The notes: generated by a model from the letters alone, not told the origin. Shown: positions 1,058 through 55,000, counted from the first letter of the stretch. The stretch is 64,000 nt of DNA from Harriotta raleighana (GCA_050575255.1 JBNZDD010013326.1:1-64000), one strand, 5' to 3'. Translations and numbers: made by a program.

Positions 1058-1081
1058 CAGTTGTTTTCGGTGGGGAAGGCG
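1058..1081 (-). CDS. Family A microexon, 24 nt (TPSPPKTT)
   Basis: ttttcccag|CG ... ACTG|gtgagt. Confidence 0.8.
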
Positions 1082-4000
1082 CTGGGAAAATAATGGACAG
1101 GGTCACAATGACAGAAGGTGAAAGAATCCAAGGATAACATGTATCTGATCTCAGCACTGAATACAAATATACCAAACTACACGCCAGTTAATCAGGAAAC
1201 GTGCAGCTACTGGCTCCAGTACAACACGAATATCAAGCTTCACTTGAGGTAATTACAAGATAGTGCAGCTCTTTTGCTTGTTACCCGATATCAAGTCCGT
1301 TTTAAGGCGGCAACTTGAGCTGCATGAAGCCGATATCAAGAAGTGACTCACTTTGAGGGAAGTGACCCCAAGGTCTCCCTGGAAAACACAAACAAACATT
1401 AGTCAGGTGGGAAGGGTAAACCAAATTGGCTCACAAGAAAATGGAGAGCATATACCCATTCCTTCTTGGGAATTACAGCTGTGTAAACACACAAGTACAA
1501 ATATCATGCGGGCATTTCACCTTTCGGCATAGTTCAGGAAAGTTTGCTGAGAATGAAAGCATAAATAGTCATTGCTGCAAGAAAGATGGTTCTACACCCC
1601 TATCTGTACACCCCTATCAAGACATGGCTTTCTCACACTGGAGCATGTACTTGGTGACAATTAGATAAACTGGGCATGTTCACTCTGGAGAAGAAGTTTG
1701 AGGGGAATACGATTATGGTGTTTAAGAATCTGAAGAGGATAGATAATGTAGACCATAACAAGCTGTTTAATATGCTACTAAACAGTAGAAGCAGAGGTCA
1801 TACAATTGAAAGGAGCTAAATTAAGAACTAATCTGTGGAAACACTCAGTGTTCAGTACACAGGCTCCACAGGGTGATAGTGCAAGCAAAAATATTGTTTG
1901 TATGGATAACAAATTAAATAGAGTTCTGCTAGATTATAATATGTTAAGATTAATCAAAAATTTGAGATAAAACATAGGAAGCCACTGCCAAGTTGGTGGA
2001 AGATGATTTAGATGGAATTTTCTTTTCTTTTGCTGAGCAAATTCTTAATTATTGGAAGTGAAAGCCAACAAGGAAAATACACATCTGATTCCACCTGACA
2101 TCTGAATTCAAGTTGCCCAAATTCCAACCCATCCCACAAAACAGTGGGTCGTTGCTAGCTCCAGTCTGATACTTCATTATCAAGCTTCATCTGAGGCCAA
2201 TACAAGGTGGTGCGTTTGCTGCTCAATATCAAGGCCATTTTAAGGCTACAACTTGAGCTGTGTGAAATGGCTGTTAAAAAGTGACTATTTCCCGGTCAAA
2301 ATACAATTGGTAATTGCTCACATCAGTTTAACAGAAATAGACATGGAATCAATGACAAAATCATTATAATTTTTTTTCAAGGGATTATCGGTCTCTATTT
2401 ACTTTGGAAGAGGGAAAGTTCAATTATTTATAAATTATTCACCCTTCCCGGGTATTGAACCTTGATCCTTTCGCTTGTAAGGCTAGAGTCCATACAAGAG
2501 TTCAAAGAGTTAGATGAAACAACATAATTCTGCACGCGAATATCAAAATGAGGGGCAACATATTCCTCATTTCCTGGACTCAAAGTACAGTAAATACAGG
2601 GTTCACTCACCAGTTGTTTTAGGTGTGGGAAGACCTGAGAAAGTAAGGGGTAAAGGTCACTACTACAAGCATTGAAAACCAACCAGGCGAACACACATCT
2701 GATCCCAGCACTGAATTCAAATATCCCAAACTACATCTCAATCTGTCATGCAATGCATAACTACTGGCTCCAAAGAAAGACTTCAATATCAAGCTACACT
2801 GGAGGCAAAGGTTGTGCTGCTCCAAAATATCAACAACCAAATGACACAAAGGAAGTGCCTTCCATGGCAGGAGGACATTGCAAGGCTCTGAACAATCGAA
2901 GAACAGAAAGGTTGGAGCAGGATTGAGATGAGCGAGAGCTCCTGATACCACTATAAAGGAGGGTCTTGAGTCGAACCTTGAACAACAAAAGAAAATTATA
3001 TTTCTATGGTGCCTTCCACGTTGGGAGAACAACCTAATATGATGTACATTATTTTAGGCCTGTGTTGGGATCGTGGAGAGTGAAGGGAATGGGAGTGGAA
3101 TGCTACGTCAAAAATGATGGACTTCAGGTAGGACTCAAAGTAGGCTAGGGAGGGGGAGAGTCAGATGGATTGCACCATGGTATTCCAAGCATTGGGGGCA
3201 GAGTGACGAAATGCATACCCACCAATGGTGGGGCGTGTGAGTCAGTGAACATGTAGAAGATCCTGCTGAGAGGAGCAAGAGACCAGTTAGTAGGGTTTTC
3301 AGAGGTCACACATATAGGGTGATGCAAGGTCATAGAGGGTCTTCAAGCCCAGGATATCAGATTGAATCCTCTGTGTGTTGGGGAGCAAGAGTCGAGCAAG
3401 AATACGGGTGATAGATTAGTGGAGCATGGTTCGAGGGAAGACATGGGCTATATAATCGTAGATGGACTGCACTCTATGGATATGCTGACCATTTGTGACC
3501 AAGTTACCCTCTGCCTCCTCATCCTCCACGACCTATCCAAATCCTTCGACACTGTGGACCATTCAATCATCCTCCACCATCTTTCATCCCACCTAAACCT
3601 TCAAGGTTCTATACTTGACTGATTCTGGTCCTATCTGTCACACTGCTTCAAGTTTACGTCCTCCAATGGCTTTTTCTCCAGCCTGCACATTGCCTAATGC
3701 CTCATCCCTCAGGGCTCTGTCCTTGGTCACCTCCTGACATTAAGTCTTGGATGAGGGACAACTTTCTCCAGTTGAATGTCCGCAAAACTGATGCCCTCCT
3801 GATTGGCTTGCATCAGTGCCTCCACATCTCAGGTGCTGGCAGGATTATATAGCGACCTCCACCCCAGATGGTGTCTCAGAGCGCTTCACAATAAAGGAAC
3901 CCGGGGCTGAGCCAGGGGCAGGGGGAAAAGTTGACCAAAATGAGGCAAAAAGATTGAGGAAGGGGTTCCAGAGGCTGGGGGTGTAGTGGCTGCAGGCAAT

Positions 4001-7000
4001 GGCACCAATGGCGGATTGATGATTCAGAAGCCAAGGAAGAGGCCACACCCATGAGAGTGAAGGCAATGGATACTGTTTTGGTGAGAGAGAAGGTCCGAGA
4101 TCTAGGGATGTGTAAAGGAGTGGAGAGAATTGAAAACAAGAGTGAGGATCTTCAAATCGATCCTCTCTGAGACAGGGAGCCATTGCAGTCTGGCAAGGAC
4201 TGGTGGATTCAGGGAGTGAAGTTTGGTACATACGAGAATGCGGGCGGTAGAATTTTGGATATCCTGGATTTTATGAATGAGCAGAGGGGGAAATGGGGAG
4301 GAGGGCATTGGAATGGTCCCCCACTAATCAGGTCCCAACCTAACTGCTTTGGGACATCCTACCGATGTGAAAGTCGCTACACAATTGTAATTTTGTTTTT
4401 GTTGTTGTAGTCCAGCCGAGAAGTGACAAAAACATGGACCAGGGTTTCAGTGGCTTTTGGGCTAAGATACTGCTGTAGACGGGCAATGTGTCGGAGATAA
4501 AAGAAGGCGGTGCTGGTTAAGGACCAGATGTGGATGAAGAAGGATAATTGGAGGTCGAAACATATGCCTTCGTTTTCTTACGGGTTCGGAAAGTTAGGGG
4601 CAGATTGGGTATGCGGAGGACATGATAGCCATAGGAGTGAACTTGTTGATGAGAGCCAAAGAGTATACCTTTGATATCGTAAACATTTAGTTGAATTTTG
4701 CGCTCATCCAACTCCTGATGATGGACAGGCTGTCAGAGCATCAGGTGACCGGAGCTCGCAAATTGAGGTTGAAAAATAGACTTGGGTATCATCCACATAC
4801 ATGAGGAAGCATACCCCATGTTTGAAGGTAGCATCACCAAGAGGGAGCATCCTTGCCGTAATAATAATAATCATAATGTTAATCATAATGATAATCCTTG
4901 CATTTGATATAGAATTTTCAACATCTTCTAGATGTCTCAAAGTGCTTCATAGAATATACTGTAAAGTTAATTGAGTGTATAATTGTGGGCAAAACACGCA
5001 AACAATTGTGCAGTGTGTCCCACAAACAGTCGTGGAATGAAATGACTGATCTTGTTATGGTTTCTATTTGAGGGATTATTATTAGGCATGTGAAATAAGG
5101 AAATTTGCCTTCGCTGGATTCGAACACAGGTCTCATGTTTGTACGATGAGTGCTGTAACCATTGTTCGACTGGTTTCCATGCCATGAAGACCTATAGATA
5201 ATTGGTTATAGCACCCCTCAGGGTGCAAAAACCCTTGTCCATGCATTCGCCACATCAAGGCTCGCCTATGAAAACTCTCTCGTCCTCTGCCATCCCCGCT
5301 CTTCCGTTCATCAAGAACTCTGCAGCTTGTATCTCTCCGACACTGAGCTCTGCAACCACATCACTCCCACCCTCACCCAGCTCTACTTGCTCCTGATCCC
5401 CCAGAGGAGAGAATTCAAGTTTAAACTCAAGATTAAACTTAATCTTCAAATCGATCCTCACTCTTGTTTTCAATTCTCTCCACTCCTTTACACATCCCTA
5501 CATCTCTAACCTCCTCTCTCATCACAACAGTACCCATTGCCTTCACTCTCATGGGTGTGGCCTCTTCGTTGGCTTCTGAATCATCAATCCACCATTGGTG
5601 CCATTGCCTGCAGCCACTGAGCCCCCAGCCTCTGGAACTCCCTTCCTCAATCTCTTTGCCTCAATTCCTTCCTGGCCTCCTTCATGGCCGGTCTGAACGA
5701 GTACTCTCCTCTTTGATCGTGCCTTCACCTGCCCTCCCAACTTCCTCCTTCCCCAATTTACTCACTTACTTCCCTCCCCCATCAGCTGCCCTTTCTACGG
5801 GGCTCAATCTAACTGTTCGGCGCTTTGGGATGGCCTCCCCAAGTGAAAGACGCTCTATAAATGCATTGTTGTTTGGAGCCAGTCAGTGCCTGAAGTGCAG
5901 AGGTGCAGGCACAATCCACGGTTCCTCAGCCTTGTTGACTTTTAACTTCAGTAAGTTAGATCTCATCCAGGATGATGTCTAACATATTGATAGGGAGAGG
6001 CAAAGAGATAGAGATCGGTGTCATCCAAGTCATTTAGAAGGTTACTCCATGTCTTTGGATGATGCAACCAACATAGAGGTTAAAGAGGAGGGCACTTGGG
6101 AACAGACCAGTAAAACATTACGTGAGATTTTGAGATGTATGAGAAATATTTGGCAGAAAAATATTGGCGAGATCTAAGAAAAAATTGAACCATTCAACAA
6201 CAGAACCTGCAAGATTGAGGTGAGATGAGAGGCAGTGAAAGAAAAAGGATCCATCCATTTTATGAACAAAGTGACTGCAGGTCTTTTCAACGCTGTAACT
6301 TTAGCAAGTATTTAAATCGACTCACTTGTATGTACGTAACTCCAAGGTCTCCCTGGAAAGCACAACCCAATGTTAGTCAAACGGGAATATCAAACAAAAT
6401 TACTGGGTGTTGGAGACTATAAAGTAATAAATGGCTCAGAACAAAATGCAGAACATATCCTCGAAAATAACACCAGTGAAAACACTCAACAAGTAGAACA
6501 TGTGTATATGAAAACACACGTTCAATGGTTTATAGTTGATCAAATCTTCTGCAAACTGAAATGAATCCCAGCGGAGAGTTCAGATGCACAGACCCCACTC
6601 GCGTTTCTCCAGAGTAAAATTCATCTGGCCTGTGTCTTCTGATTTTCCAGTCTGTCTATGTCTTCTTCCAGTCTACTCCTATTGTTCTCACAGTTTGCTG
6701 TTCTTCCCAGCTTAGTAGCATTGGCAAACTTGGAAAATATACTTCCTAAACCTACTTCGAACTTATTCAGCTGATAGGCATCCTCTCGGTGTATTGCCGA
6801 GAAATTGAAATTTAGACCAAGAATCTTAATTCTACACGTGAATCTCAATAGGATCACAGAAATATATAGCACACAGGCAGGCCTTTTAAGGTATCTAAAC
6901 CAGCTCTTTCAATAGAGCTATCCAAATCAATCTTACAGCCTGCTCTCTACTCAGGGGCCTGAAAACTTCTCCTCCCAAAATAATTACCCTATATTTGCTT

Positions 7001-10000
7001 ATATAGATGCCAAGGTCTCACTGCTGTGTTACTCTTTAAGATTGTACCACTCAGCTAATGTTGGCTCTCCTTATTCTTCCTTCTAAAATCCATGTCTATG
7101 CACTTTTCCACATTAATCTTCATCTGCCACTTGTCTGCCCATACCACCAGTCTGCCTATGTCCTTGAAGTCTGGTTACTATTTACCTCATCATTTACAGT
7201 ACATCCTAGCTTAGAATCTTCTGCAAAATTGGAAATTGTACTCCCTGTAACCAAGTTCATGACATTATATAATCAACAGATCATTGGTCAATAAATTCTG
7301 AATTTCCTGGGCTATAAGAACAGTAAAAGCGGGGCTCACTCACCAATAGTTTTGTGTGGGAGAGTGGCTGAGAAAATAAGAAGCAATGGTCACTACTGCA
7401 GAAAGTGAAAGAATCCACGGAAAACAAACATCTGATCGCAAATATCCCAAACTAATATCCCATTGCTGGCTCCAATCTAACACTTGAATGTCAAGCTTCA
7501 TCTGAGTCAAGTTTATGGCGGTATGTTCTTTCCCCTGTTACTCAACATCTTTAGCCCACTTTAGGGCTCCAAATTGAGCTTTATGAAGCCGATATTAAAT
7601 AGCGACTCACTTATAGGGATGCGACTCCAAGGTCCCTCTGGAAAACACAAACAAGCATTATTCGGAAGGGAAGAGTAAAGGAAATAACTGGATNNNNNNN
7701 NNNNNNNNNNNNNNNNNNNNNNNNNNNNNNNNNNNNNNNNNNNNNNNNNNNNNNNNNNNNNNNNNNNNNNNNNNNNNNNNNNNNNNNNNNNNNNNNNNNN
7801 NNNNNNNNNNNNNNNNNNNNNNNNNNNNNNNNNNNNNNNNNNNNNNNNNNNNNNNNNNNNNNNNNNNNNNNNNNNNNNNNNNNNNNNNNNNNNNNNNNNN
7901 NNNNNNNNNNNNNNNNNNNNNNNNNNNNNNNNNNNNNNNNNNNNNNNNNNNNNNNNNNNNNNNNNNNNNNNNNNNNNNNNNNNNNNNNNNNNNNNNNNNN
8001 NNNNNNNNNNNNNNNNNNNNNNNNNNNNNNNNNNNNNNNNNNNNNNNNNNNNNNNNNNNNNNNNNNNNNNNNNNNNNNNNNNNNNNNNNNNNNNNNNNNN
8101 NNNNNNNNNNNNNNNNNNNNNNNNNNNNNNNNNNNNNNNNNNNNNNNNNNNNNNNNNNNNNNNNNNNNNNNNNNNNNNNNNNNNNNNNNNNNNNNNNNNN
8201 NNNNNNNNNNNNNNNNNNNNNNNNNNNNNNNNNNNNNNNNNNNNNNNNNNNNNNNNNNNNNNNNNNNNNNNNNNNNNNNNNNNNNNNNNNNNNNNNNNNN
8301 NNNNNNNNNNNNNNNNNNNNNNNNNNNNNNNNNNNNNNNNNNNNNNNNNNNNNNNNNNNNNNNNNNNNNNNNNNNNNNNNNNNNNNNNTCCAGTTCAGCA
8401 TTTCAATATCAAACTGCATCTGAGGCAAAGGATGTGCTTCTCCTCCAACATCAACAAAATTATACAAATAAATCAACTTCCAGATGGACGGATATTAGGA
8501 CTCAATCTGGGATGGTTGAACGATGGACCAGTGAATGAGGAGGGTCTTGCGGCATCACTTGAAGGAGGCTTGGGTTGTGGCAAGCCAGAGCAATTGTGCG
8601 GTGGAAATTCAGAGATTGGGGACAGAGTGGCAGAAGACTTGACTGGCGATGGTGGGGCGGGTGGGGAGGTGGTAGCTAACATGGGGTGTAGGGAAGCTTA
8701 CAATGGCGAAGGGTAGGCTAGCTAACCTGGATTGGGTTCAGACTATTTAACATGGGGTGATAGGATGACTAACATTGTAGGGGTAGTCATGCTACCATGG
8801 GGTAGGCGTTAACATGGGGGGTAGGCGAGCTAACATTGGGCGGGGAGAGTGTAAATAGTTGAAATTATAGTATAAGTTTTATTGATCATGTAGTAAATAA
8901 TCAAATCAATTAAAATGTATTGAACAAATGATGCCATGTGGTTTGGAATACACAAACACAGTTCACTATAGAAACATTTAGATAGACTTATACTTGAATG
9001 TGACTAGATAATGGGATTGGGAGAATAGCACTGAAAGAGCTGAGAAATGTTCAGACCAGTAAGTCACGCAGACAGAGCCAAAGACAGGACAATGAATTAT
9101 TGAAAATGTTCTGACCATCAAGGACAAGTAAGTCAGGAGGTCTGGTCAGGCTAGATAAGATGGAATGGAGCAAATTTTCTAAGGTGTACAAAGTAACAAA
9201 TTTGAAGATAGGGAAGAATGCCAAGAGAAGGTTAGCAAATATACACTTTACACTATATATTGTGTGGAGCACTATGAGACAGGAGAAGTTTAACACAGTG
9301 GCAGAGATGGCAGAAGTATAACACGATAGCAGGAATGAAGCTGGTCAGAAACGAAAGGATCTCTGAAGGGAGGTAGAGATCCTAGTCTAGCTCTCGGCAG
9401 AGTAGAGCACAGAAGGAAGCACGTCTAGTTCTTGATACAGTGAACGACAAGCAACAATGCAGCAGAGAAAACAAGCCAAAGACGTTTGCAGCCAGAAGCA
9501 AGTCAGAGGCTGTGTTTAATTCTTGGGCCAGCCACACATCCATACGAGGAGTCCGTTGAGCAATCTCTTGACTACTCTTTAGTATCTATCCTGCTGACTA
9601 ATACATGCATCCAATATACCAGGACAGTCAGTCATTGCTTAAGCACATCTCTTATACCAAACAAGGTTTCTTTTATGTTTAGAATTATGATTTTTAAAGA
9701 ACCTTGTTAAGATAGTATTTTAGTTGGTTTCTGACAAACGCTTTACTCCCGTGCTCCCCTCTCCAAGGTGCAAAAACCTTACATACTACCTTAAATCTGT
9801 GCACAAGTTTGGTCACCACACTTTAGGAAGGATATTAAGCCATAGGAAAGGGTGTATAGCAGATTTACTGGGATGAAACCAGGAATGAGGGAATTCAGCT
9901 ATGAGGAAAGGCTACATAGGCTAGGCTTGTTCTCTCTAGAACAAAGAAGATTGAGAGGAGAACTAATAAAGGTTTATAAGATAATGAAAGGTATCAGGGT

Positions 10001-13000
10001 AAATAGGGAAAGACTGTTTCCACTGGTGGGTGAATCAGTGACTCGTGGTCACAGATTTAAAATAGTTTCAAAACGAAGCAGAGGGGAGCTGAGGAGAAAT
10101 GTTTTCACGCAGCGGGTTGTTCGAATATGGATTGCCTGAAAGGGTAGTGGAGGCAGATTCCATAACAGCTTTTAAAAGCGAACTAGAGATTTATTTAGGA
10201 AGAGCAGGACTGTTAAGTTATGGGGAGAAAGATGGGCAGTGGGATTGAGTTGCTCTGTTCAAAGAGCGGTCCCAGACTAGATGGGCTGAATGGCCTCCTT
10301 TTACGCCATATAATTCTATGATTCTATAAAATCCTCCCAGTACGACAGCTATGTCCGATCCTGTAAGGCACAAAAACGAGCCACAGAATGCACCAGGAGT
10401 TAATCCAAACTAATGATCCATCATTATATTTAGCTGGATTACACACAGATCTACCACTCCACCTTTGTCTCTGTCAAATCCTCAGTCTATTCAAGGTGAT
10501 CGTGGAACCCAGTGAAACTGCCAGGCTTCTCCTATGCACTATTAACCACTCCCTCCATCCACCTTTCCATACCTCGCCAACCCTTTCCTCCATTTACATG
10601 GAGTTGCTGGAATTCCTTGAATCCATAATTGAGGGGATGCATTCGAACAACAAGCAGGTCAGAGCTCACTGAGCGGAGGAAGTAGAAAGATTGGTAGGGT
10701 GTTAGGAGCTGACCAATATAGGTTTGGGAAAGGCCATGGAGGGCCTCAAAGGTGAGGACCTCTATATTTTTGTGGAACCATCCAAAGACATGGTGTGAAC
10801 TTACAGATGTGCTTGGATGACACCCAGCTCCATCTCTCTGCTTCAACCTGACTAGCTATCAGAGATCAAGTCCTAGATGAGAACTAACTTTCTAAAGTAA
10901 AATGTCAATAATACTAAGGACCTCCTGATTGGCTCGCACTAGCGTTCATTCAAGAATAGTTTTTGTCACTGTAGTTTCCTTCCAGGTAAGAGGGAGATTT
11001 AGCTAAATTAGACTGGGGAAATATATGAAAGCATATGACAATAGATCATCAATGGCAAGATGTAGTGCATAATTCCCAGCAGTCACAATTCGCTTGAGGA
11101 ATAAAAGTATCACTTGAAAGTTGTTCTTTCATGACTAAGTAGAGCAGTTAGGAGTTAAATCTTTTAGAGTTTTGTGAGGAGATAACTATCAGATTATATA
11201 CGGGTGAATGAATAGATGTAATGTATTTAGATTTTCAAAAGCCATTCAATAAGTTGCTGCATAAAAGACTGATTCACAAGATTAGGGTCCATGGAATTAA
11301 AGCTAACATACCAGTGTGGATTGAAGAGTGGTTAACAAGAAGAACATAGAGAATAGGGATAAATAGATTCTTTTCAGATTGGTGGAATGTGACTAGTGGA
11401 GTTCCACAAGTATCAGTGCTTGGGCCTCAACTATATCGATGATCTAGAGTAGAACATCACATTTAAAAATATCTAAATTTGTAGATGATACTAAACTAGG
11501 AAGGGGAGTAAATACCAAGGATGACACAAAATAATACAACGGCTTACAGATAGGCTAGAAAAGTGGGCAAGAAGATGATAGATGAAATATCATGTGGGGA
11601 AGTGTGAAGTTATTCACCTCAGTAGTAAAAACAGAAAAGCACATTGTTTTCTGGAAGGGGAGAGACTAGATTGTGTGAGTGCAGAGGGACTTGGGTATCC
11701 TTGTACACCAGTCACAAAAAGTTATTATGCAGGTACAGCAAGCAACTAGGATGGTCAAAGGTATGTTGGGTTAGAATATAAGAGTAGGGAAGTCTTGCTG
11801 CAACTGTACAGGGCCCTGGTGAGACCCTACCTAGAATATTGTGCACAGTTTTGGTCTCCTTATTTAAGAAAGGATGTACTCGCCTTGGAGCAAGTACAGT
11901 GTAGATTCACTAGGTTGGTACCTGCAATGACGGTGACGTGTTATGAAGATAGGTTGAGCAATGCAGGCCTATATTCACTAGAATGTAGAAGAATCAGAGG
12001 TGATTTTACAGAAACCTATAACATTATTAAGTGGCATGACAGAGTAGATAATGGGAGGTTACTTCCCCTGGTTGGAGACACTATAACTATATGTCATTGT
12101 CTCATAGTCTTACGATTAGGAGTCAGCCTTTTCGCACTAAGTTGAGAAAAAACAGTTTCACTTAGAGAGTAGTGAATTCTGGAAATCTCTACCCCAAAAG
12201 GCTGTATTGAAGATTGATATTGATAGATTTCTTATGGATCAAGGGATTAAGGGATATGGGAATAAGGCAGGTGGGTGGAGTCAGATTTGAAGTTCAGCCA
12301 TGAATATATTGAATGGCAGAGCAGGCTTGAGGGCGTCGAATGGCCTAGATTCTAGATTCATAAGAATGATTCCAGGAATGGGGAACCTTAGCTGTGAGGA
12401 TGGCTGGAGAAGTTAGAACTTTTCCCATTAGAGCAGAAAATGTTATGCGCGAATCTGATAGAGGTCTTCAAGATCATGAAATGTTTCGACAGGCTAGATA
12501 GGGAAAAGCTGTTTCCACCGGTAGGTGTGTCTCACAGACTTAAGATATCTACCAAAAGAAGAAGAGGGGAGGTTAGAAGAAATGTTTTCACTCAGCGAGT
12601 TGTTCGAATTTGGAATGATCTGCCTGAAAGGGTAGTGAGTTCCAATTTGACAGCAGCTTTTAAGAGAGAACTAGATAGGTATCTGGGGAAGATGGGTTTG
12701 CAGAGTTGTGGGGAGAAAGCTGGTGATTGGGGTTAATAAAAGTGACATTGCTCTGCCAAAGAGCCGGCACAGACTCGATGGGCCGAATGGCCTCCTTCTG
12801 TGCCGTAACATTCTACGATTCTATTTTCCTGCTCCTAATTCTTATGTTCTTATTTCAGAACATGCAATTTTGAGGTGAGAAGAGAAACAGTGGAGGAGGT
12901 TGGAGTGATCCAATATATCGAAAGCAACAAAGAGGTTGTAGGCCATTTTAAGGCTGCAACTTTAGCTCTGTGAAGGAGGTGTTCGAAAACAACTCACTTG

Positions 13001-16000
13001 TAGGGACAGGACTCCAAGGTATCCCTGGAAGACGCAAACAAATGTTTGTCAGACAGGAATATTCAGGATAATCACATCTTCAGTGGATTACAGATGATCA
13101 CGTCTTCTGCGAACTGAAATGTATCCCAGCAGAGGTCAGATGCACAAACTCCAGTTGCATTCACCTTCATAATGCAGGATTACTGATTGCTCCTCACTTA
13201 GCATTTCTCCATTGTAATCTTCATCTGCCCTGTGACTGCCCATCTTACCAGTCTGTCTATGTCTTCTTGCAGTCTGAATGCTGTCATGCTATTTAGAAAT
13301 CTATCCAGCTTAATATTAGCTGTAAACTTGGAAAATGTACTTCTTAAACCTAACATTAGTCAATCTTACCCATCTGATCAATAGTAAATACATTCTGCAG
13401 CTCCTGGGTTCTACATACAGTAAACATGGTGCTCACTCACCAGATGTTTTAGTTGTCAAAGAGGCTGAGAAAATAATGAGCAAAAGTTAATAATATAGGA
13501 AATAAGAGCCGGCCAGAAAACACATTTCTGATCCCAGCACTGAATTCAAATATCCCAAACTACACTACAGTCCATAATGTAATGTGAAATTTCTGGCTCC
13601 AATCCAGCACTTATATGTCAAGCTTAGTGTGAGACATATGAGGTGCTGCTGCTCTCTCGTTTGCTACTCAATTACCAGACTATTTTAAGAGCTGTATGAA
13701 GTTGATAATAAAAAGCAACTCACTTGTAGTGACGTAATTTGAAGGTCTACCTGGAAAACAAAAGCAAACGCCAATCAGATTGGAAGATTTAAGGAAATCA
13801 CTGGATATTTGAGAATATGATCAATCATGCAGTAAAATGGGAACCATAATAATAATCTTTGCATTTAATGACCTTATCGTGACTTCAAGCTGTCTGATTG
13901 CATATTATGTGGGAAAAATACAGCTGCCAGTTATGCACAGCAGTGTCCCACAAAGGGGCCTGGATTGTGCAACCCAATTATTAATATAGTAGTTTTTTAA
14001 ATAAATCATTACACCTGAAAAAGCAAACCACTGATCATCCAATATCCAAGTTTGTACTTACTACAGTAAAACTTTGTTTATCCGGCACGCTTGGGGTGGG
14101 GTCGACGAATTGACGGTGCCGGATAAACAGGGAGAAGTCGCCGAAAACTCGACATGAAAACTTAACTTAATTTAAAACATACCATGTTAATAATACACTA
14201 CATAGTAACAGAATATTGTATGGAGACATACCAACAAAGCATTCTAGCAGAATCGCAAAAAAATCGGTAACACTGCATTTTGTAACCAATCAGTAAAAAG
14301 CTTAAGTGCGTAAGTTTAATAAGTGAGCATGCGCACGCATTGCACGCATGCACAAAGTGAGCAAACTCGTGATTCTGGAATGGGGAATTGTCCTGGTAGG
14401 GGATCGAGCAATTGAATCGAGTCACGGTTGTTCGGGTCATGGATAAACAAGGTTTTACTGTATTAGGTTATCTGAAGCATGAAGCAAAAGGAATCTACTC
14501 AACAGTTTGCAATGCTGGGAATTTAACCCAGGTTTCTCGCTTGTGAGTTATTTGCTCTAGTCACTGAACTGCAGGAATCCATCAAATTGAAAATTAAATT
14601 CAGACACTGCTGGGAATTACACTTGTCCAAACACACAACAAATAAAACCTGCATTCAGAAAAATCATATAAGAACCTAAGAATTAGGAGCACAAGTAGGC
14701 CGTTTAGCCCTTCGAGCCTGCCCCACCATTCAATAAGATTATGGCTGATCTTCTGGCCTAACTCTAATTACCTGCCCTATCCCCATATCCCCTAATCAAG
14801 GACCAAGCATCTATAGCCTTCTGGGGTAGTGAATAAATTCACTACGCTCTGAGTGAAGAAATGTCTCTTCAACTCTGTTCTAAAAGTCTGACACTTAATT
14901 TTAAGACAGTGACTCCTGGTTATAGATTCTCCTACCAGGGAAAACAGTGTCTCAGTGTCTACTTTATCCAGCCCTTTCAGAATCTTATATGTTTCAATAA
15001 GATCCCCACTAATTCCTCTGTAAACTCTCGAGATTACAGCCCTAGTTCATTCAACCTATCCTCATAGGTCAGTCCCCTCATCCCAGGAACTAACCTAGTG
15101 AATCTACGCTGCATCCCATTTAAGGCAAGTATGTTCTTTTTTAAATAAGGAGACCAAAACTGCACACAATACTCTAGAGCAGACACCCCAAAGCCCTATA
15201 CAGTTGCAGCAAGACATCACTACTATTGCACTCTAAACGTTTTGAAATAAACACTAGCATGCCATTCGCCCTCTTAGTTGCTTGCTGCACCTGCAAACTA
15301 ACTTTTTGAGACTGGTGTACAAGGACACCCTTTGAATACTAACAATAGTTAAACTCTCTCCTTCGATAAAATAATCTGTTCTTGTATTTTTCCTACCTAG
15401 GGGAATAATTTCACACTTGCCAACATTAAATTCCATCAATCCAAACATTCAACTACAAAACCTAGCACTGAGTCGTTCTCACTGCTCTCTGCAATTAATA
15501 TGTGGAACATATAACAAGCGCGTTTCTCACCTATCGGCAACTGTTCAGGAAAGCTTGCTGAGAAAGAAAAAAAGCAAAGTCACTGCTGCAGGTACTGAAA
15601 GCTGACAACACAAACACAAATTGACTCCAGAACACAGTACAAACATCACAAGCAACTTCCTATTGTTCGGGGTGTTAGGATTGTGTTCTGGTGTCAGTGT
15701 TCTACAGTCACTAGACATTATCATACTGATCATATTGATCTTCACAGTCGTACTGATTTTCACAGTTTATGATCAGAGTCAAACACCTCAATCCAATTCC
15801 CAACCTAAGACAACCAGGAATTCTAGATTTCAAAGTACCAGTTGTGTTTTGAAAGTAATAGACCGACTCACAGAATGGCTTGTAAGGCTCAACTGCAAAA
15901 GACAGAAAAGATCATTTACATTGAAACAGCCTAACCAAAGATTACACACTTGATGAGATAACATAAGAACATAAGAACTAGCAGCAGGAGAAGGCCATTT

Positions 16001-43000: not shown

Positions 43001-46000
43001 AAAAGAAAACTGCCATCTGCCTAATAACCAAGTTGCTACTTACTTCTAGGTTACCCAAGGTGTGTAGCATCATAAGGAAACGTGTCCAACAGTTTGCATG
43101 GCTGGGAATTGAACCAAGGTTTCTCGCTTGTGAGTCAAGTTCTTTACCAATGAGCTGCAGGTATCCATCATATTGATCCAACACAAACCCCGCTCGCTTA
43201 CCCCTTCATCGTGCAGGATTACTGATTGCTCTAAACATTCAAATAACAAATACAGCACCAAGACAATATTCTCACTGCTCCCTGCAATTGATATGCGAGG
43301 TATATAACAAGCATCTGTCTCACCTATCGGCCGCTGTTCAGGTAGTCTTGCTGAGAAAGAAAGAAAGGAAAGTCACTGCTGCAGTACCTGAAAGCTGACA
43401 ATGCAAACACACACTGACTCCAGAACACAGTCCAAAAACCTATTTTGCTGAATTTCACATTTCCTGATCAGAGCCAAACACATCAATCCAATTCTCAACC
43501 CAAAGCAACTGAGAATTCTATATTTCAAAGCAGTTAACACTTTGAGCACCAGTTTGGTTTGGAAAGTAATAAATGATTCACAGAATGGCTTGTAAGGGGG
43601 AAATGCAAAAGACAGAAAAGATCATTTACAGTGAAACAGGCCAAACATAGATTACACAGTTGTTGTGATAACAAATTAAGTTACAACAAATTGAACGATG
43701 GACTCCAGCGTTGATAGGCATCCTCTCAGTGTATTGCCAAAGTTGAAATTGAGACCAAGCAATTTAATTCTACATGTGAATCTCAATACGTTCAAAGAAA
43801 CACACAGCACAGCAGGCCTTTTAAGGTATCTAAACCAGCTCTTTCAATACAGCTATCCAAATCAATCTTACAGCCTGAATTGGAAGCTGCCATAGTCAAT
43901 CTTTGATTGTAAACAGACTGTGTTTATTTGTGTACCCCGTCTTTTCACACTCTAAAAAAGCACGGTCAGGTAAACTCAACAGAGTTGAATTGTAGTTTCA
44001 GTGAAATTCACAAAACATGGCACTAAACCTTGTGAAACAAGGAATATCAACAAGCAACTCTGAAATAGTATCCCACACATAGAAGTAGACACAGTGATAA
44101 AGTGATTATGATTAGTTTTTGAAGGGATTCTTATTCTTATTAAAGGATAACCTATTACGAGGTGAATAGAGACAAATCGAGTAATATAAATTGACAAATT
44201 ATTCACCCTGCCCAGAAATAAAATCCTGGTCCTCTCATTTGTGACCCCTATGTGCACGCTCATGATATGGGTCACTCCCATTGCAGTGTGTACCTGGTAG
44301 CTTCAACAACAACTTTGATTTATATTGCACCCTCCATGCTCAGAGCGCTCAAGCTTCTGATTCAAATGTCACAAAATGAATTCAAGTCCATATAACATTT
44401 ATTTAAATGATGAGAAAATAATCTGTAATGACAATGAAAAGGAACTGGGAATCCTGCTGCATAATAAATTGAAGCTATCCCAACACTACTGAGCAGTTGA
44501 AGCAGAGGGCATGCGTTTGAAAGTGACTAAACTTAGAACAATTCTGTGGAAACACTTAGTGAGCCTTTAACAAACTAAAGCAATAAGCTTCCTTAGGTGA
44601 TGTGGAAGCAGAAAATATTGTATCCTTGAAGAGGAAAATAATATCTCAAGATTTCGTAAAACATTTCAGACACCAATTGAAGCCACTGCCAAGATGGTGG
44701 AAGGTGAATTAGATGGATGTTTGCTTTTTTTTGCTTCGCAAATTCTTAATCATTGCAAGTGAAAGCTGACAATGAAAATACACATCTGATTCCATCCATT
44801 ATTTGAATTCAAATAGCCCAAATTCCACCCCGTTCCATCATGCAGTGAGCCATTGCTGGCTCCAGTCTGACACTTCACTATCAAGCTTCTTCTGAGGCCG
44901 ATACAAGGTGGTGCTGCTCTCTCGTTTGCTCCTCAATATCAAGGCCATTTTATGGTTGCAACTGGAATTGTATGAAGCAGATATTAAAAAGCAACAATTT
45001 TGTGGGAAAAGTGCAGACAATTATACATGGTAGTTTCATAGAAATTGTCTTTTTTTTTCCAAGTGATTGTTGATCCCTGTTGACTACTGGGTTAACAGAA
45101 GTTATTTTGGGGAGAGGGAAAGGTTAATTATTTGTCAATTATTAACCCTGCACAGATATCGAAAGCTGATACTTTCACCTGTAAGGCAAGCATTCTAACC
45201 AACTGAGCTGCAGTGCTCCACATCTTAGTTCTCAACTTAAGGCAACTGGGAATTTATATTTGAGTGACATTTAACATATTCAGCATGAGTTGCGTTCAGA
45301 AACTAGGAAAGAACTTCACAGAATGGCTGGTAAGACTCAACTGCAAAAGAAAGCACAGATCATTTGGAGTGAAACACGCAACACGCGCATGAAACACGTG
45401 ATGTAAAAGCAAATTGCATTGAAATTATTTCAACAATTCACTCCAAAAGTGATACAGACATGATCGGTATAAAACAAGAGTTGAAACTTAGACCAAACAA
45501 TATAATTCTGCGCATCAATCTCTATGATATATTCTGCATTTCCTGTGCTATAAGTACAGTAAATATGGGGTTCACACACCAGTTGTTTTATGTGTGGGAG
45601 GGGCTGAGAACGTAAGGAGCAAAGGTCACTACTACAGGAAGTGAAAACCAAGAAGGAAAACACATATCTGATCCCAGCACTAAATTCAAATATCCCAAAC
45701 TACAACCTAGTCAATCGTTCAATGTGCAATTACTCACTCCAGTTCAACATTTCAATATCAAGCTGCATCTGAGGCAAAGGTTGTGCTGCTCCTCCAACAT
45801 CAACAAAATTATACAAATAAATCATCTTCCAAGGTGGGAGGACACCCTACCTGGAGAGATATTTGGACCCAATCTGGGATCCGTGTGTGTGATGGTTGAA
45901 TGATGGACTGGTCAATCAGCAGGGTCTTGAGGCATCACATGAAGGAGGCTTGGGAGGTGGCACGCCAGAGCAATTGTGCGGTGGAAATTCAAAGATTGTT

Positions 46001-49000: not shown

Positions 49001-52000
49001 ATCGATGATCTAGATGAGGACATACTTACATAGCACCTTCTGTCAGCATTAAATCTTGTGATGCAATAGATGTCAACAAACAACTATGAAACCCAGGAGC
49101 CAAATGTGCACAATAGTTTCCCACACTTAGGTGTGGATTGAATGATCAAATTATTATTATTTTTTTAAAAGGGATTTTTACATCCAGAAAAGTGATCCAT
49201 TAATCGACTAACAACAGGATTCTAAATTACTAGCAATTGAACAAAGGCAGGTGGAATACAGCAACTTGGGAAATTATTTACACTGCCCAGGAATCAAACC
49301 CTGGTCCTCTTGTTGCAAGGTCAGCAAGCTCACTCCTAAACTGCAAGACTTTACATCACAATTCTCAACCTAAAGCAACTGGGAATTCTATATTTGCAAC
49401 ACCAGTTTGATTTGGAATCTAGCAAATGACTTACGGAATGGCTTGTAAGGCAATGGATTTCAATGCCTTGGGATGTTGTCCTGACATGAAAGGCACTATA
49501 CAAATGTAATTTTGTTGTTGTTGTTGGATGAACTGCAAAAGGACACTTACAAAGAAGCAGGCAAAACAAAGATCACACAGTTAACATGATAACAAATTAA
49601 TTCCAAAGGAATTGAATGATTGAAAACAAAAGTTTTACACAAATAGGTATGTTACAAAAGTTGAAAGCTACTTCATTCTGCTCAACAAGATGGACAATAC
49701 ATTATGCATTTCCTGGGCTGTACGTACAGTAAATAGGGGGTTCACTCACCAGTTGTTTTAGGTGTAGGAAGGGCTGAGAAAGTAAGGAGCAAAGGTCACT
49801 ACTACAGGAAGTGAAAACCAACAAGGAAAACACACAACAACAACTAAATTACATTTATAGAGCGCCTTTCACATCGAGAGGACGTCCCAAAGTGCTGAAC
49901 AGTCAGGTCGGGACCCGAGCAAGGGGGAGGAACAGGGTACGGGGGACGGGAGGGAGAGAGTTAGGAGGGCAGCAGAAGACACAATCGAAGAGAGGTTCTT
50001 GAGACCAGCCTTGAAGGAGGCAAGGGAGGAAGTGAGATGAAGGGACTGTGGGATGGAGTTCCAGAGTGTGGGGGCAGAGAGGTTAAAAGCTTATCCAGGA
50101 TAGATCAGGTAGTGGACATGGAGCAGACTGAAGCCCACTGAACTGAGAGGCAGGCAGATTCATACGGAGTCAGCTGGTCAGAGAGACAGGAGGGAGCAAG
50201 GCTGTGAATGGCATAGACAGTGAGGATAAGGATCTGATCATTTGATCCCAGCACTAATATCAAATATTCCAAACTACAGCCCAGTCTGGCATGCAATGTG
50301 CAATTCCTGGCTCCAGTCTAACAATTCAACACCAAGCTTCATCTCAGGCTAACACAACATGGTTCTGCTCTTTCGTGTGCTACTCAACATCAAGAACATT
50401 TGACGTTAACAGCTGGTTGTGTTAAAAAAATGTAACAGAAGTGACTTACTTTTGGGATTGTAATACCAAGGTCTTCCTGAAACAGAGTAAAACAAATGAT
50501 GAATAGTGGTTAGCAACTTGTCTGTGTAAAGATCTATGTAGATATAAAAAGAGAAAAGTAACATCATTTTCTATCACCTCAAAGTCTAGGCTGATGTTCC
50601 AAAAGCAACACTAACAAAATTATAATTGTATAGCTCTGAGAGGATGTCCCACAGTGCTGAAAGCAGTGCCTGGAGAGGAACTCTGCTTTGTTATAGATGT
50701 CCTCATCTTTGCTGAACCTCTAAACCAGTGGTGGCCAACTGGCTGGAATTAAGGAGTGCCCATCAAGTAGTGCCCAGTGAACTAGAAATGATAGATCTTG
50801 TATTTCCAGTTTTCTCTTGATTGCATACATCTTGATTTGTTGCATAAATTAAGAAATGATCAAACAAAAAAGTGTATTTCGCTATCACATCAATCCCACC
50901 CTCGCCCATCTCCACTGGCTCCCCATCTCCCAAAGGATCAAATTCAACATCCTCGTCCTCACTTTCAAGGCCATTCACGGCCTTGCCCCCACCTCTCTGA
51001 CCTGCTGTCTCCCTATCAGCCTGCCTACCCCCTTCATTCAGCACTCAGGCTTGTTCCGCATTGACCGCCCTAACCACCCAACCATCGGTGGCCAGGCTTT
51101 CAGCTTCTCTGCTCTCACACTGTGAAACTCCATCCCGCAGCCCCTCTGCCTTGCTTCCTCCCTTTCCTCCTTCAAGTGCTTCTTCTTCGACTGCACCTTC
51201 AGCTCCCCCTCTAACTCTTCCCCCTCCCTCTCCCCAGAACCCCCCCCCCCCCAACACCCGCCCCCACCCACCTTGGGTCCTGACCTGACTGTTCAGCGCT
51301 TTGGGACATCCTCCCGACATGAAAGATGCTTTATAAGTGCAATTTTGTTGTTGTATTTTTGGCCAACCATAAAAATTGCAATAATCCAGGGTCATCTCTG
51401 CTGCTCAGTTGGATTTTAAAGATCACATGATTAACCTCTATAAAACTTTGGTTAGAGCTCAGCTAGAGTACTGTGTTCAATTCTGGAAGGATGTTTAGGA
51501 ATTGGAAAGGCAGAGGAGATTTACCAGGATGGAACCAGGAATGAGGGATTTCAGTTATAAGGAAAGGCTAGAGATGCTAAGTGCATTCTCATTGGAGCAG
51601 AGAAGATTACGAGGAGACATCATAGAGGTTTTCAAGATCATGAGGGGATTTGTTAGGGTAAACAGTGAAAAATTGTTTCCACCTGGGGTGTGTCAGTGAC
51701 TCGAGGTCACAGATTTAAAATAGTTTCTAAAAGAAGCAGAGGGGAGGTGACGAAAAAAAAATTCACTCAGCAAGTTATTCAAATCTGGAATGTATTGCCT
51801 GAAAGGGTGGTGGAGGCTGATTCAATAATAACTTTTAAAAGAGAGGTAGATGTTTATTTGGGGAGAATGGATTTGCATGGTTATGGGGAGAGAGCTGGGG
51901 AGAGGGATCAAATTGCTCTTTTCAAAGAGCTAGCACCGACTCGATGGACCGAATGGCCTCCTTTTGTGCCATATGGTTCTATGATGCTATTCGAAAAGAG

Positions 52001-55000
52001 AAAGTTTTTCCCAGTGTCAGGGCCAAATGTTACCTATATAAAATAAGAAATTAGTTTATTAATCTCATGAGTGTTTATGAGATGCTGCTTTGCTCAATTT
52101 GGTTGTTGCATTCACCTACAAAGACACAATCATTACATTTTTCAATAACATTGTAAGACATTCATTAAATTGTATCAATTGCAGAGATTATTACTCATAT
52201 CAGATAGTCAGAAAACATTATCTGAAAATGTATATACAAAAGATTAACTGAATGGCCTACAGATGTAGAAATCTCCTGCTATCAGCCTCAACAAGAACAT
52301 ATGCTTCACGAAAAAGATAGTATAGTCGACTTACTTGTTCGGGCCTTCACATCAGATTGCTCTACAGAAAAAGGAATTGAATGCAACAACTGAACTGATA
52401 AACAAGTAGAATCACTGGTACACGCACAATAGATAAGTACCAACTCCTGCAGGGCATGCCAACCCTCAACATTTTTTCTGCATGAAAAAATCTCCCGTTT
52501 TAGTCATTTGCTAACTATTTGAAATCATTGCCCTCTTGTCCCTGACTCACTGAGCAGCAGAATGTTTTTCATAATTAATTCTCTCAAATCCTTCAATTAA
52601 TTTATCCCAAAGTGTTGCAAATTAACTGTAGCTGGACTGCAGTGTGCTTTGTAGGTCCTGAACAACAACAACAGAATTACATTTATAAAGCACCTTTCAT
52701 GTCAGGAGGACGTCCCGAGGTGCTGAAGCGGATACATTTTCTATTATATACTTTATAATGTATTATAATATATTATTATGAAGACTCATAAGATGCTACA
52801 CCAAGTACTAGGTTTATTATTGTTTGTTATAAGTCGCTGAAAACTAGCTCACCTGGGAGTCTGGTCACAGTGGGTGTTCCTGGTAATGCAAGAATTAGAA
52901 TAATGTTACTGTTTGGAAAACAAGTGCATCCCACCACCTCAGCTCCCGCCCATCTGCTATATGAGGATAGTAGCCGATTGCAAGAAGACATAGGCAGACT
53001 GGTAAAATGGGAAGATACATGGCAGATGAATTTTAATGTGGATAAATGCGAAGTGGGGCATTTGGGGAGAAAGACTGAGGATAGGCAGTATAAGCTGATG
53101 GTAGAATCTTAAAGGGGGTGAAGGAACAGAGAGACCTAAGGGATGGGTAAAGGAATTAGAAAAAACACATCATGGCCTAATATTTTCCACATGAAAATCC
53201 CAATCCGAGTCAGTGGCGCAGTTACCACAAGATATCTAAGAAATAAAGTGAAGCAATGACTTATCTGGTGGGTAATATATTGGAGGTTCCAATGGAAAAA
53301 AAACTCAAATGTAATTGAAGATTTTAGTATAATTCACCCCCTTATTCTCTTATTGTGCTTCTATTTTTAGCATGCTCCTTTGAACTTCACTCTTATGCTC
53401 CAAAAAACATTGTAACAAACCCTTTTCACTTTTCGCATGTTCATTCTGATGATATCCAGCCCCACTGACACTTAGTCTCCTTGAACGGTGAAACGTGGCT
53501 TTTCACAAATTGTAATCCAATGATAAATACACAGTTGCCAGTCAATAACTGGCTGAGGAAGTGATCAATTTTCAGAAAATGTACAATGAAACGAGCAGCT
53601 CAAATTTTCTGCATGAAAAAATTCAATGTATTCAAATAGTTTAAAAGAATAACTTACCCGATGGTTTGATTATAGATGTTCCTGAAAACACATGAAAGAT
53701 ACAAGTAAATGATTAAAAACAGTGTTGTATATTAGAATAAAAACTTGCACTTATATAATGCTTTTTACATGGAGCAATGTCTTCCAAGGCTTTACAGAGA
53801 CAGGCTGAAGACACAAAGCAAGGCTGGAAATAGTGGGAATAGAAGAAAGTTGACCAAAGACATGGTCAAAGAGGCATATTTTTGTAAGTGTTTTAAAAGT
53901 GAAAATGTGAAATAAAGATCTTGAGAGGTCTGGGTTCCTGGTGGCTTACCAATCAGTCACCAATAGTGGGATGAAGAGTGGGGGACATGCAGCAAGCACA
54001 ACTTTGCAAAACCTAGAAAGATGGTCCAAGACTGGGGCAAGAGGATTTGGTAGAGTTTACAGCAAAGGTTTAGAGGCCCAGGGTGGCTAGATGACAAATT
54101 AAATTTAATGATGGAACATGTTAGGTGATATATTTTGAAGGGAAGAATAAACAAGGAAATACGTATTAAATGGTAAATGTAATAATGATAATTATCCTTG
54201 CATTTGATACTGTAAAGTGAATTGACTGTCTATTTGTGGTTGAAATGCACAGAATAGGTATACAAATATAAACAGAATAAAAGAGACCCAGGGGTAAATA
54301 TACACAGATCTTGAAAGATTGATAAAGTAAACAAAAGGAGTACACATTATGATATTAAAAGGAGATTTGTAAGCCTGTATAAATTAGGCGGCGGCTGTGG
54401 TTTAAATAAACTCCTTTTTCTGTTTACAAAAATTAGTAAAAGAGAAAAGCTGCAGGAAAAGGGCGTTTACTTACCGCAAGGCATGCAACATTTCAAGACT
54501 TCATCAAAATATTCATTTGTGCCACAATTGTAACAACCTTTAAACAGAAAAATGTATTAACATTTTGCAGGGAAGAGATGAGAGTGTATAGCCCCTTTCA
54601 TGTCAGGAGGTTGTACTACTTCAGACGCGAGCTTAGGACAGGGGATGTGTAGCGAAGGGTGCATTAAGAGGTGCTGATATGTCCATCGAAGAGAAGAGTC
54701 TTGAAGCAGGACTTAAAGGAGGTCAGGGAGGGAGCAAGGTGGAGGGACTGCGGATGGAATTCCAGGGGTTGGGAGCAGAGTGGCTGAAAGCTCGCCCAGG
54801 GGATGTGGAGCAGGGCACAGAGGGCATGAGTCACAACAGGGTACAACAGGACATAGAGGGCTCTCAGGGCACAGGGGGTTGGTGGAGCAGCCTGGAGCCC
54901 GCTGAATGGAGGGGATGGGCAGATTGATAGGGACCCCACATGGTACCCAGGACTAAAGTACTGCGCAACAGACATAAATCAAAGTAAACAGAGTGTAGGA

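Follow-up and report, generated by a model that had tools for sequence, protein, structure and literature searches.

Mucins in which one exon carries one repeat unit are already known. The Xenopus integumentary mucin FIM-B.1 has cassette exons and mammalian MUC19 has many small repeat exons; these mucins, like FIM-C.1, belong to families other than Muc6 and have acidic or Thr/Ser-rich repeats. Outside the mucins, the micro-exon genes of schistosomes carry arrays of symmetric exons shorter than about 36 nucleotides (nt) in secreted proteins, and are variably spliced. In chicken MUC2, a repeat unit of 69 residues extends over exons 32-45 (PMC3549977). The cartilaginous fish Callorhinchus milii has two Muc6 paralogues, and its Muc6 lies head to head with Muc2 (Lang et al. 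2016, PMC4948705). Here, a Muc6 paralogue is described from a 64,000-nt stretch of the genome of Harriotta raleighana (GCA_050575255.1, JBNZDD010013326.1:1-64000), the whole of which is called the window. This gene very probably encodes a secreted, polymer-forming mucin whose central repeat is encoded by microexons.

The window is C13326:1-64000, and genome searches used an assembly of 1.10 Gb in 13,732 contigs. The gene lies on the minus strand. Its 5' exons extend to ~83.2 kb of C13326, outside the window, and the window start is base 1 of the contig, so that the 3' part of the gene and the array run off the contig end. The microexon inventory was built from a rule-based scan, seeded profile scans and a curated list. 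The window contains 50 full-length microexon copies: three unique exons (U1-U3), 13 of class A1, 4 of A2, 15 of B, 7 of C and 8 of D. In 45 of them AG, GT and a length divisible by three are kept, while five are broken (AG or GT gone, or 26 nt long). When the catalogue is extended over C13326 and two further contigs, C11566 and C13227, 92 of 101 copies are intact and every one is phase 1-1, with one repeat unit per exon and symmetric phase, as in exon-per-repeat mucins. The central repeat has at least 770 residues, encoded by at least 91 usable microexons of 15-27 nt that fall into five classes plus the three unique lead-in exons.

The array is not due to chance. Under a fixed rule (pyrimidine tract, YAG, GTRAG, 15-39 nt), the minus strand of 1-54000 gave 59 candidates, 40 of them 21, 24 or 27 nt long. 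In the controls these lengths made up 0 of 10 candidates on the plus strand, 6 of 24 in the 80 kb upstream and 4 of 18 in the 57.5 kb downstream. Tandem Repeats Finder did not detect the array. The copies in the window, together with one remnant, are as follows, from the 5' end of the gene:

53658..53681, minus: U1, unique microexon, 24 nt; in-frame homologue in the C. milii model
52853..52879, minus: U2, unique microexon, 27 nt
52335..52361, minus: U3, unique microexon, 27 nt; in-frame homologue in the C. milii model
50450..50476, minus: A1, 27 nt, intact
49750..49773, minus: B, 24 nt, intact
49435..49451, minus: D exon remnant, other sequence in place of the 5' part and acceptor
45580..45603, minus: B, 24 nt, intact, donor GTGTGT
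45320..45340, minus: D, 21 nt, AG/GT retained, donor weaker
43582..43602, minus: D, broken, acceptor AG gone
43324..43350, minus: C, 27 nt, intact
42676..42702, minus: A2, 27 nt, intact
42139..42165, minus: A1, 27 nt, intact
41554..41577, minus: B, 24 nt, intact
41061..41087, minus: A1, 27 nt, intact
37419..37444, minus: C, broken, 26 nt, acceptor AG gone
37223..37249, minus: A1, 27 nt, intact
36928..36951, minus: B, 24 nt, intact
35822..35842, minus: D, broken, acceptor AG gone
35455..35481, minus: C, 27 nt, intact
33788..33814, minus: A1, 27 nt, intact
30178..30201, minus: B, 24 nt, intact
30135..30158, minus: B duplicate, 19 nt 3' of the preceding copy, across an N; probable assembly artefact, co-splicing impossible
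29870..29890, minus: D, 21 nt, intact
28329..28355, minus: C, 27 nt, intact
28126..28152, minus: A1, 27 nt, intact
27837..27860, minus: B, 24 nt, intact
27153..27173, minus: D, broken, both AG and GT gone
26880..26906, minus: C, 27 nt, intact
26235..26261, minus: A2, 27 nt, intact
25696..25722, minus: A1, 27 nt, intact
24971..24994, minus: B, 24 nt, intact
24704..24724, minus: D, 21 nt, intact
24465..24491, minus: A2, 27 nt, intact
24194..24208, minus: B, 15 nt long after an in-frame 9-nt deletion, splice sites intact
23683..23709, minus: A1, 27 nt, intact
17867..17890, minus: B, 24 nt, intact
17199..17225, minus: A1, 27 nt, intact
16905..16928, minus: B, 24 nt, intact
15872..15892, minus: D, 21 nt, intact
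15531..15557, minus: C, 27 nt, intact
13724..13750, minus: A2, 27 nt, intact
13441..13464, minus: B, 24 nt, intact
12998..13024, minus: A1, 27 nt, intact
7611..7637, minus: A1, 27 nt, intact; 695-N gap at 7694-8388 just upstream
7344..7367, minus: B, 24 nt, intact
6326..6352, minus: A1, 27 nt, intact
2611..2634, minus: B, 24 nt, intact
1521..1546, minus: C, 26 nt (1-nt deletion, donor weakened); frame-shifting, skipping predicted
1352..1378, minus: A1, 27 nt, intact
1058..1081, minus: B, 24 nt, intact
279..299, minus: D, 21 nt, intact; final copy before the contig end

An earlier reading of the window, made from the sequence only, had proposed 40 such exons on the minus strand (3 unique + 17 + 15 + 5), and all were recovered. 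The 17 exons of its class B are the 27-nt A1 and A2 exons of the present catalogue, the 15 of its class A are the present class B (14 of 24 nt and the one of 15 nt at 24194-24208), and its five C exons correspond to the five intact 27-nt copies of class C. The copy that it suspected of being an artefact, 30135-30158, belongs to a tandem duplicate of 43 nt that spans an N; the 'intron' between the pair would be 19 nt long, and only one of the two can be used. The lengths of 24 and 27 nt were borne out, but the 21-nt class D had been overlooked, with eight full-length copies in the window, five of them intact, and so had the broken copies. Once class D is counted, the array reaches 279 and not 1058, where the sequence-only reading had set its limit.

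Several duplicates joined at N are probably assembly artefacts: the 43-nt duplicate (window 30125-30209) and a 1.45-kb duplicate at 99.7% (window 18086-20984), each joined at a single N, and N-joined exon duplicates at C13227:80.8-83.2 kb and C13326:131.8-133.0 kb.

The reading frame of the array is fixed on both sides. The final Cys-rich exon ahead of the repeat (the GCYNC exon, 54475-54537) ends in phase 1, as set by the upstream constant exons, and the C-terminal exons start in phase 1. When the intact exons of the three contigs are joined (774 codons), there are no stops in phase 1, compared with 18 in phase 0 and 45 in phase 2. The earlier description of the microexons as symmetric, stop-free and phase 1-1 stands. 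Only nine of the 4186 possible downstream junctions create a stop.

The same array is encountered in C. milii. In the RefSeq model XP_042197479.1 (P0003), U1 and U3 are in frame and are followed by a frame shift via an intron-extended B exon. The model then contains 62 units (19 C, 15 A1, 14 B, 9 D and 5 A2, of 9, 9, 8, 7 and 9 residues, respectively), and at its end runs on into the same intron that comes after class D in the H. raleighana genome (95% over 19 residues). Compared with the focal exons, 5-7 positions per unit match in the phase-0 translation and 0-3 in phase 1; therefore, the same microexon classes exist in C. milii and the model is out of frame. Across residues ~915-1501 of the model, the units are strongly homogenised, with 14 C units identical to one another and likewise 14 B units, in contrast to the diverse focal copies, which suggests lineage-specific turnover. 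A second protein, P0125, which clusters with C. milii XP_007909925.1, contains phase-1 units of classes B, C and A and continues directly into the same C-terminus. It may be either a complementary DNA or a gene model; P0003, too, may be a gene model, and as evidence for transcripts with the small exons both proteins are indirect.

Given the 62-unit open frame of XP_042197479.1, it might be asked whether the repeat is read in phase 0. However, this reading meets 18 stops in the focal genome, where both flanks are in phase 1, and XP_042197479.1 enters phase 0 via the intron-extended B exon, a 52-nt form that has a stop in the focal genome. The model also never reaches the cystine knot, while P0125 reads phase 1. 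The phase-0 reading was rejected on account of the stops, the phase-1 flanks and P0125, and is scarcely credible.

The array does not end with the contig. When array DNA was used as a genome query, more pieces were found on C11566, C13227, C11429 and C5006, so that the array continues over three to four contigs beyond C13326. There are 12 catalogued copies on C11566 (11 intact) and 39 at C13227:444-33963 (36 intact). On C11429, 1 kb of C11566 recurs at 99.8%, along with one further intact A1, and C5006 adds another intact A1 and one dead B. Class D overall has 11 intact copies among 15 full-length ones, with remnants besides. Altogether, the array amounts to about 90 exons of 15-27 nt over >95 kb, with a median spacing of ~620 nt between intact microexons.

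Five C-terminal exons begin 5 kb past the last microexon on C13227; they start in phase 1 and splice in frame (~167 codons) to give a short Cys-rich segment, a cystine knot and a stop. Because the D3 exon has one exact copy in the genome and the cystine-knot exon one match, the pieces of the array most simply belong to one gene, with a presumed order of the contigs. A separate gene for the C13227 part was ruled out by the single N-terminus and single C-terminus. No Thr/Ser-rich stop-free frame of >=100 codons was found between the flanking exons in the assembled sequence, in which gaps remain, and the assembled sequence of this gene does not show the one-large-central-exon design of mammalian mucin genes. 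The repeat accounts for ~775 of roughly >=2100 residues, about a third of the protein.

Self-comparison of the array reveals nested duplications of intron-plus-exon blocks at offsets of ~0.3 kb to 15-20 kb (86-93% identity) and at a 35-kb offset (88-92%), as well as a young 1.9-kb triplet on C13227 (96-97%). The array has grown through nested tandem duplication of such blocks, and single units die when AG or GT is lost. Since every exon is symmetric, the duplication, deletion or skipping of any block is frame-neutral. Introns in the window (e.g., 55500-56400, 58200-60150 and 18400-21700) also contain dispersed repeats with fragments that resemble the reverse transcriptase of long interspersed nuclear elements, and such inserts have removed the 5' half of several D remnants.

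It could be argued that the microexons are neutral by-products of this segmental duplication, mostly unspliced, and that the true repeat exon lies in an assembly gap. The region is indeed made of nested duplications, gaps are present, and the ratio of non-synonymous to synonymous changes (dN/dS) is ~1. The behaviour of the splice sites is difficult to reconcile with this proposal. In class trees of 98 copies (the three unique exons and the duplicate B were left out, and one dead D was included), AG/GT bases changed 8 times, compared with 32.3 changes expected from the flanking intron (Poisson P 4e-7), and no stops arose where 5.8-7.2 were expected (P 0.003-0.0008). Splice sites and stop avoidance are therefore far from the neutral expectation, in spite of a divergence of up to 35% between flanks. 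Dead copies can be recognised and accumulate second hits, and C. milii, with only 82-85% identity in the N-terminal domains, has the same classes. A neutral origin of this kind is highly improbable.

The copies that deviate in length point in the same direction as the splice sites. All four frameshifted copies also have a splice site lost or weakened, and the sole length variant with strong splice sites is the 9-nt deletion. In class A1, a Pro-Trp pair shows no non-synonymous change in 28 copies, while its flanks show 2.45 changes per site (these positions were chosen post hoc). Selection keeps the splice sites, the open frame and a few motif residues, and not the exact sequence. The proposal of a Muc6-type gene with its central repeat in symmetric microexons is supported, as is selection for its splice sites and open frame.

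The splice signals are strong and uniform. The donor is GTGAGT in 68 of the 92 intact copies, and a branch-point-like motif is found 17-32 nt upstream in 78 of the 92, compared with a background of 26%, although the copies are not independent; the motif is also present in eight of nine broken copies. Such signals fit mostly constitutive inclusion of the microexons. In 11 of 27 B exons there is a second GTGAG four bases 3' of the donor (e.g., 41550-41553 and 36924-36927), the use of which would shift the frame.

Whether the main use of this architecture is instead regulated or stochastic alternative splicing, giving each cell or tissue many isoforms that differ in length and unit order, and with them a polydisperse mucin or a variable region like that of schistosome micro-exon genes, is a separate matter. 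Every exon is symmetric, and 4177 of the 4186 possible junctions create no stop. Class D is rich in dead or weak copies (11 of 15 full-length copies intact), and in XP_042197479.1 only 9 of 14 places have a D unit after B. Xenopus FIM-C.1 owes its polymorphism to alternative splicing (PMC7177656), which has also been proposed for chicken Muc13 (PMC1552070). On the other hand, tandem duplication alone already requires symmetry, the signals are those of constitutive small exons, and the multi-exon repeat of chicken MUC2 has only one splice variant (PMC3549977). Alternative splicing as the main use appears rather unlikely, but it is compatible with the microexon architecture, as is the ordinary-mucus reading considered below.

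In sharks, five gene models contain 9-residue units of the form EKPxDYYPP, either after D3 or before the orthologous C-terminus, and XP_043562379.1 has 12 in a row. These units align with class A2 without a shift in register (mean BLOSUM62 of 13.0, with p 0.008 in a permutation test of a subset) and likewise with A1 (p 0.03), while comparison with class C gave no match (p 0.36). At either end of the runs stand the residues that read-through of a phase-1 acceptor or donor would give, which suggests that sharks have 27-nt exons too. The microexon repeat is not private to H. raleighana: C. milii has it as well, and probably so do sharks. The expectation in the sequence-only reading that standard gene predictors would miss the array has to be modified, since XP_042197479.1 strings together 62 units of exact length, albeit in the wrong frame, and the shark models catch runs of 1-12.

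Judged by domain content and sequence similarity, the gene is a chondrichthyan Muc6 paralogue. The constant exons on which this assignment draws are:

61563..61748, minus: constant exon, third VWD domain
61058..61297, minus: constant exon, VWD3 end and C8 start, 240 nt, phase 0-0; served as database query
60591..60747, minus: constant exon, C8 domain, 157 nt, phase 0-1
57863..58003, minus: constant exon, Cys-rich D3 tail, 141 nt, phase 1-1
54475..54537, minus: final Cys-rich exon ahead of the repeat (GCYNC exon), 63 nt, phase 1-1; sets the array frame
C13227:39157-39185, 39275-39415, 39555-39606, 40775-40880, 44063-44237: C-terminal exons

The three N-terminal VWD-C8-TIL assemblies give collinear exon matches over 1075 of 1148 residues of a shark mucin-6-like protein (P0006), and the C. 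milii orthologue contains three Pfam VWD domains, C8 and TIL. The best match of the constant exons is the C. milii mucin-6-like protein, with 97% identity in one exon and 82-85% across the N-terminal domains. With four VWD-bearing queries there was no VWD match between the array and the cystine knot; a fourth VWD is thus absent, as in Muc6. The CysD domain (Mucin2_WxxW, PF13330) has 19 matches in the genome, none inside the assembled sequence of this gene. P0125 scores 33 bits for the cystine knot (cut-off 24). The last exon of the gene, which alone holds half of this domain, scores 17.7 bits against the same cut-off and is 91% identical to the C. milii protein. Other cystine-knot searches were less productive: a query that contained intronic read-through did not match longer proteins, a profile search gave only three chondrichthyan C-terminal models, and the ESM Atlas only sub-threshold cystine-knot mucin clusters.

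Among the 120 of 169 database matches listed, 102 are named mucin-6, 18 have no family name and none is another mucin. Tetrapod Muc6 proteins score 127-152 bits, compared with 114 for MUC2, 111 for VWF, 98 for MUC5B and 94 for MUC5AC, the latter four being solved structures. A Muc19 or Muc2/5 identity was rejected in view of the mucin-6 names among the matches listed, the lower MUC2/MUC5 scores and the lack of CysD in the assembled sequence. A tree of 1064 columns (28 rows, unrooted, no outgroup) joins the gene to mucin-6-like proteins of C. milii, sharks and rays (support 1.0); tetrapod Muc6 and a second shark paralogue, whose tail is rich in Thr and Ser, are placed separately. A 78-residue tree with seven paralogues from the same genome (two rows empty) did not resolve the mucin families. 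The earlier MUC6 label can be kept in the sense of a paralogue by descent, with three VWD assemblies, no fourth VWD, no CysD and a cystine knot.

The gene has close relatives around it. Two Muc6-like genes flank it in the same orientation, at C13326:119-158 kb and C13227:69.7-103.5 kb, 53% and 55% identical over the D domains, which makes three tandem paralogues compared with two reported for C. milii. Beyond the upstream paralogue, a CysD-bearing VWD gene (Muc2 or Muc5) lies on the opposite strand at C13326:186-204 kb, an arrangement that matches PMC4948705. In the downstream paralogue, the GCYNC exon is followed by a 24-nt microexon of phase 1-1 (C13227:102591-102614) and then, close to the end of the contig, by a candidate Thr-rich exon of 42 nt; this paralogue, too, may have a multi-exonic repeat. 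For the upstream paralogue, no repeat or cystine-knot exons were recognised at C13326:84-119 kb, a region with two N gaps (2.2-2.5 kb) and a near-identical pair of candidate exons of 69 nt (100634-100702 and 100788-100856). Elsewhere, a 1165-codon open frame with five CysD domains at C13369:226.7-229.6 kb is a large-exon mucin in the same genome and provides an internal contrast, and C13648:2.19-2.49 Mb, with at least five D3-like exons and several CysD domains, is an expanded Muc2/Muc5-type cluster.

The composition of the repeat is a more surprising point than the microexons, and one on which the sequence-only reading was silent. The focal repeat has 21% Pro, 24% Thr+Ser, 13% Lys+Arg, 3% Asp+Glu and 13% Trp+Tyr+Phe+His, and that of the shark Chiloscyllium plagiosum has 26% Pro, 20.5% Tyr and 10% Thr+Ser. 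In six other Muc6 proteins (a seventh reference, without the anchor motif, was dropped), Thr+Ser make up 44-64% and Tyr <=1.1%. The usual criterion for a Pro/Thr/Ser (PTS) domain is ~40% Thr+Ser; at 24% the repeat is therefore not an ordinary PTS domain. Thus, the gene is classed as a Muc6 paralogue by descent, while its repeat, which is expected to be disordered, is not classed as a PTS domain.

One account of this composition would be an ordinary glycan-brush mucin with an unconstrained spacer that has drifted. Pro+Thr+Ser still amount to 46%, class B units are rich in Thr, Ser and Pro, dN/dS is ~1, and the domain frame is that of Muc6. However, Thr+Ser are half or less of those in other Muc6 repeats (10% in a shark), the A1 Pro-Trp pair is unchanged as described, and the Pro/Tyr register is common to sharks. 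Drift of this kind is possible but doubtful. A tentative alternative, held slightly below even odds, is that the spacer acts as a sticker chain: Pro-rich, lightly O-glycosylated, cationic and aromatic (Pro/Tyr-rich in sharks), and perhaps cross-linked through Tyr. Such a chain would add cohesion or cross-linking to the secretion and would not form a dense glycan brush. The repeat resembles Pro/Tyr-rich adhesive and wall proteins.

It is tempting to go further. A Muc6 paralogue kept since the chimaera-shark split may have become a mucin scaffold that displays a non-mucin peptide array, one microexon per Pro/Tyr unit in sharks or per Pro-Trp/Arg/Lys unit in chimaeras, variably spliced, with its aromatic residues cross-linked or sulfated, in a secretion with a structural or adhesive role, for example egg jelly, the lining of a capsule or the matrix of sperm packets. 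This proposal is speculative and on balance unlikely; if true, a natural modular sticker-polymer would lie split, truncated or misframed in current annotations. No paper on the tissue of expression was found, and the main text of a catshark atlas has no mucin passage. For the skin mucus of a shark, a proteome lists mucin-5B and mucin-2-like proteins, and mucin-6 does not occur in its main text, which is weak evidence because the repeat is mis-annotated. Chimaeras lack a stomach, the organ where mammalian MUC6 works (PMC6346038, PMC4948705).

The explanation preferred here is that the transcript for the most part retains the intact microexons, and that the product is a Muc6-type polymer with a spacer whose length evolves as symmetric cassettes duplicate and die; we give it a probability of roughly 0.8. 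Most intact exons would be present in the messenger RNA, and dead and weak ones, mainly of class D, would be skipped. In the window, skipping is predicted for the copies at 1521-1546, 37419-37444, 43582-43602, 35822-35842 and 27153-27173 and for one member of the 30135/30178 pair. Repeat length would be tuned at the DNA level, comparable to changes in variable number tandem repeats of single-exon mucins. Polymerisation might proceed through D3 and the cystine knot as in other gel-forming mucins, a weaker suggestion that draws on established mucin biology.

Several points weigh against this explanation. The test for purifying selection at the protein level was negative (94 non-synonymous and 29 synonymous changes, dN/dS ~1, binomial P 0.36), and pairwise pN/pS, the corresponding ratio of proportions, is 1.34 among copies; therefore, there is no general purifying selection on the protein. 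The synonymous sites are themselves somewhat conserved (29 changes, with 41 expected), and the motif positions that are conserved may in part act as splicing enhancers. Five truncated remnants and a duplicate were left out of the splice-site test, a bias in favour of retention. With the array split over five contigs with N gaps, its order and its total number of exons are provisional, and a gap could hide a large exon. We infer the inclusion of the microexons in H. raleighana transcripts from genomic sequence, and the exon structure in sharks is deduced from the residues that flank the repeat runs. Finally, the sticker-chain reading draws on composition and likeness, so that its glycosylation, cross-linking and tissue are conjectural.

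If the preferred explanation is correct, the Muc6 family has a second way to build and resize a mucin repeat, at an extreme scale. The locus is relevant to the idea that vertebrate mucins ancestrally had repeat domains of several exons (PMC1552070). Since living and dead copies lie adjacent, it is well suited to testing how microexon arrays of vertebrates come to be defined, duplicated and lost. It also exposes a systematic annotation error in cartilaginous fishes, whose models are in the wrong frame or split; proteomic searches of their secretions would therefore not match the repeat. The low-Thr/Ser, aromatic-rich repeat points to a secreted material with properties unlike those of ordinary mucus.

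Among known systems, the likeness to schistosome micro-exon genes is a resemblance only: there the microexons make up most of a short protein, while here they encode one domain, ~775 of >=2100 residues, that arose by tandem duplication. Full-text literature searches, which covered few subscription papers and not all supplements, found no microexon-encoded Muc6 repeat in cartilaginous fishes, and such a structure is not described in the accessible text of PMC2180178, PMC6346038, PMC11979771, PMC10707392 or PMC4200417. Exon-per-repeat mucins are thus not new, but for Muc6, and at an exon size of 15-27 nt, no report was found. The sequence-only reading had named Xenopus integumentary mucins and schistosome genes as precedents. 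Alternative splicing of Xenopus laevis FIM-C.1, a mucin outside the Muc6 family, is supported (PMC7177656), but closer precedents exist in chicken Muc13, Xenopus Otogl and chicken MUC2.

Like vertebrate Muc6 (PMC4948705), the gene has three VWD assemblies, no fourth VWD, no CysD and a cystine knot, in a cluster that faces a CysD-type mucin, Muc2 or Muc5, head to head. It differs in its ~90 repeat microexons, in Thr+Ser of 24% and not 44-64%, and in the presence of three tandem genes; the accessible text of PMC4948705 is silent on exon structure and repeat sequence. Xenopus tropicalis Otogl/MucXS (PMC5789918) and chicken MUC2 (PMC3549977) are likewise gel-forming VWD/cystine-knot proteins with a multi-exon central domain. 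These two are not Muc6, and their PTS units have Cys-rich or CysD inserts; units of microexon size are not stated in the accessible text. With chicken Muc13 (PMC1552070), the gene has in common one repeat unit per exon, and length control by splicing was proposed there. However, chicken Muc13 is a transmembrane SEA mucin with at least 12 near-identical units of 20 residues, while the H. raleighana gene encodes a secreted VWD mucin with units of 5-9 residues in five classes and about eight times as many exons.

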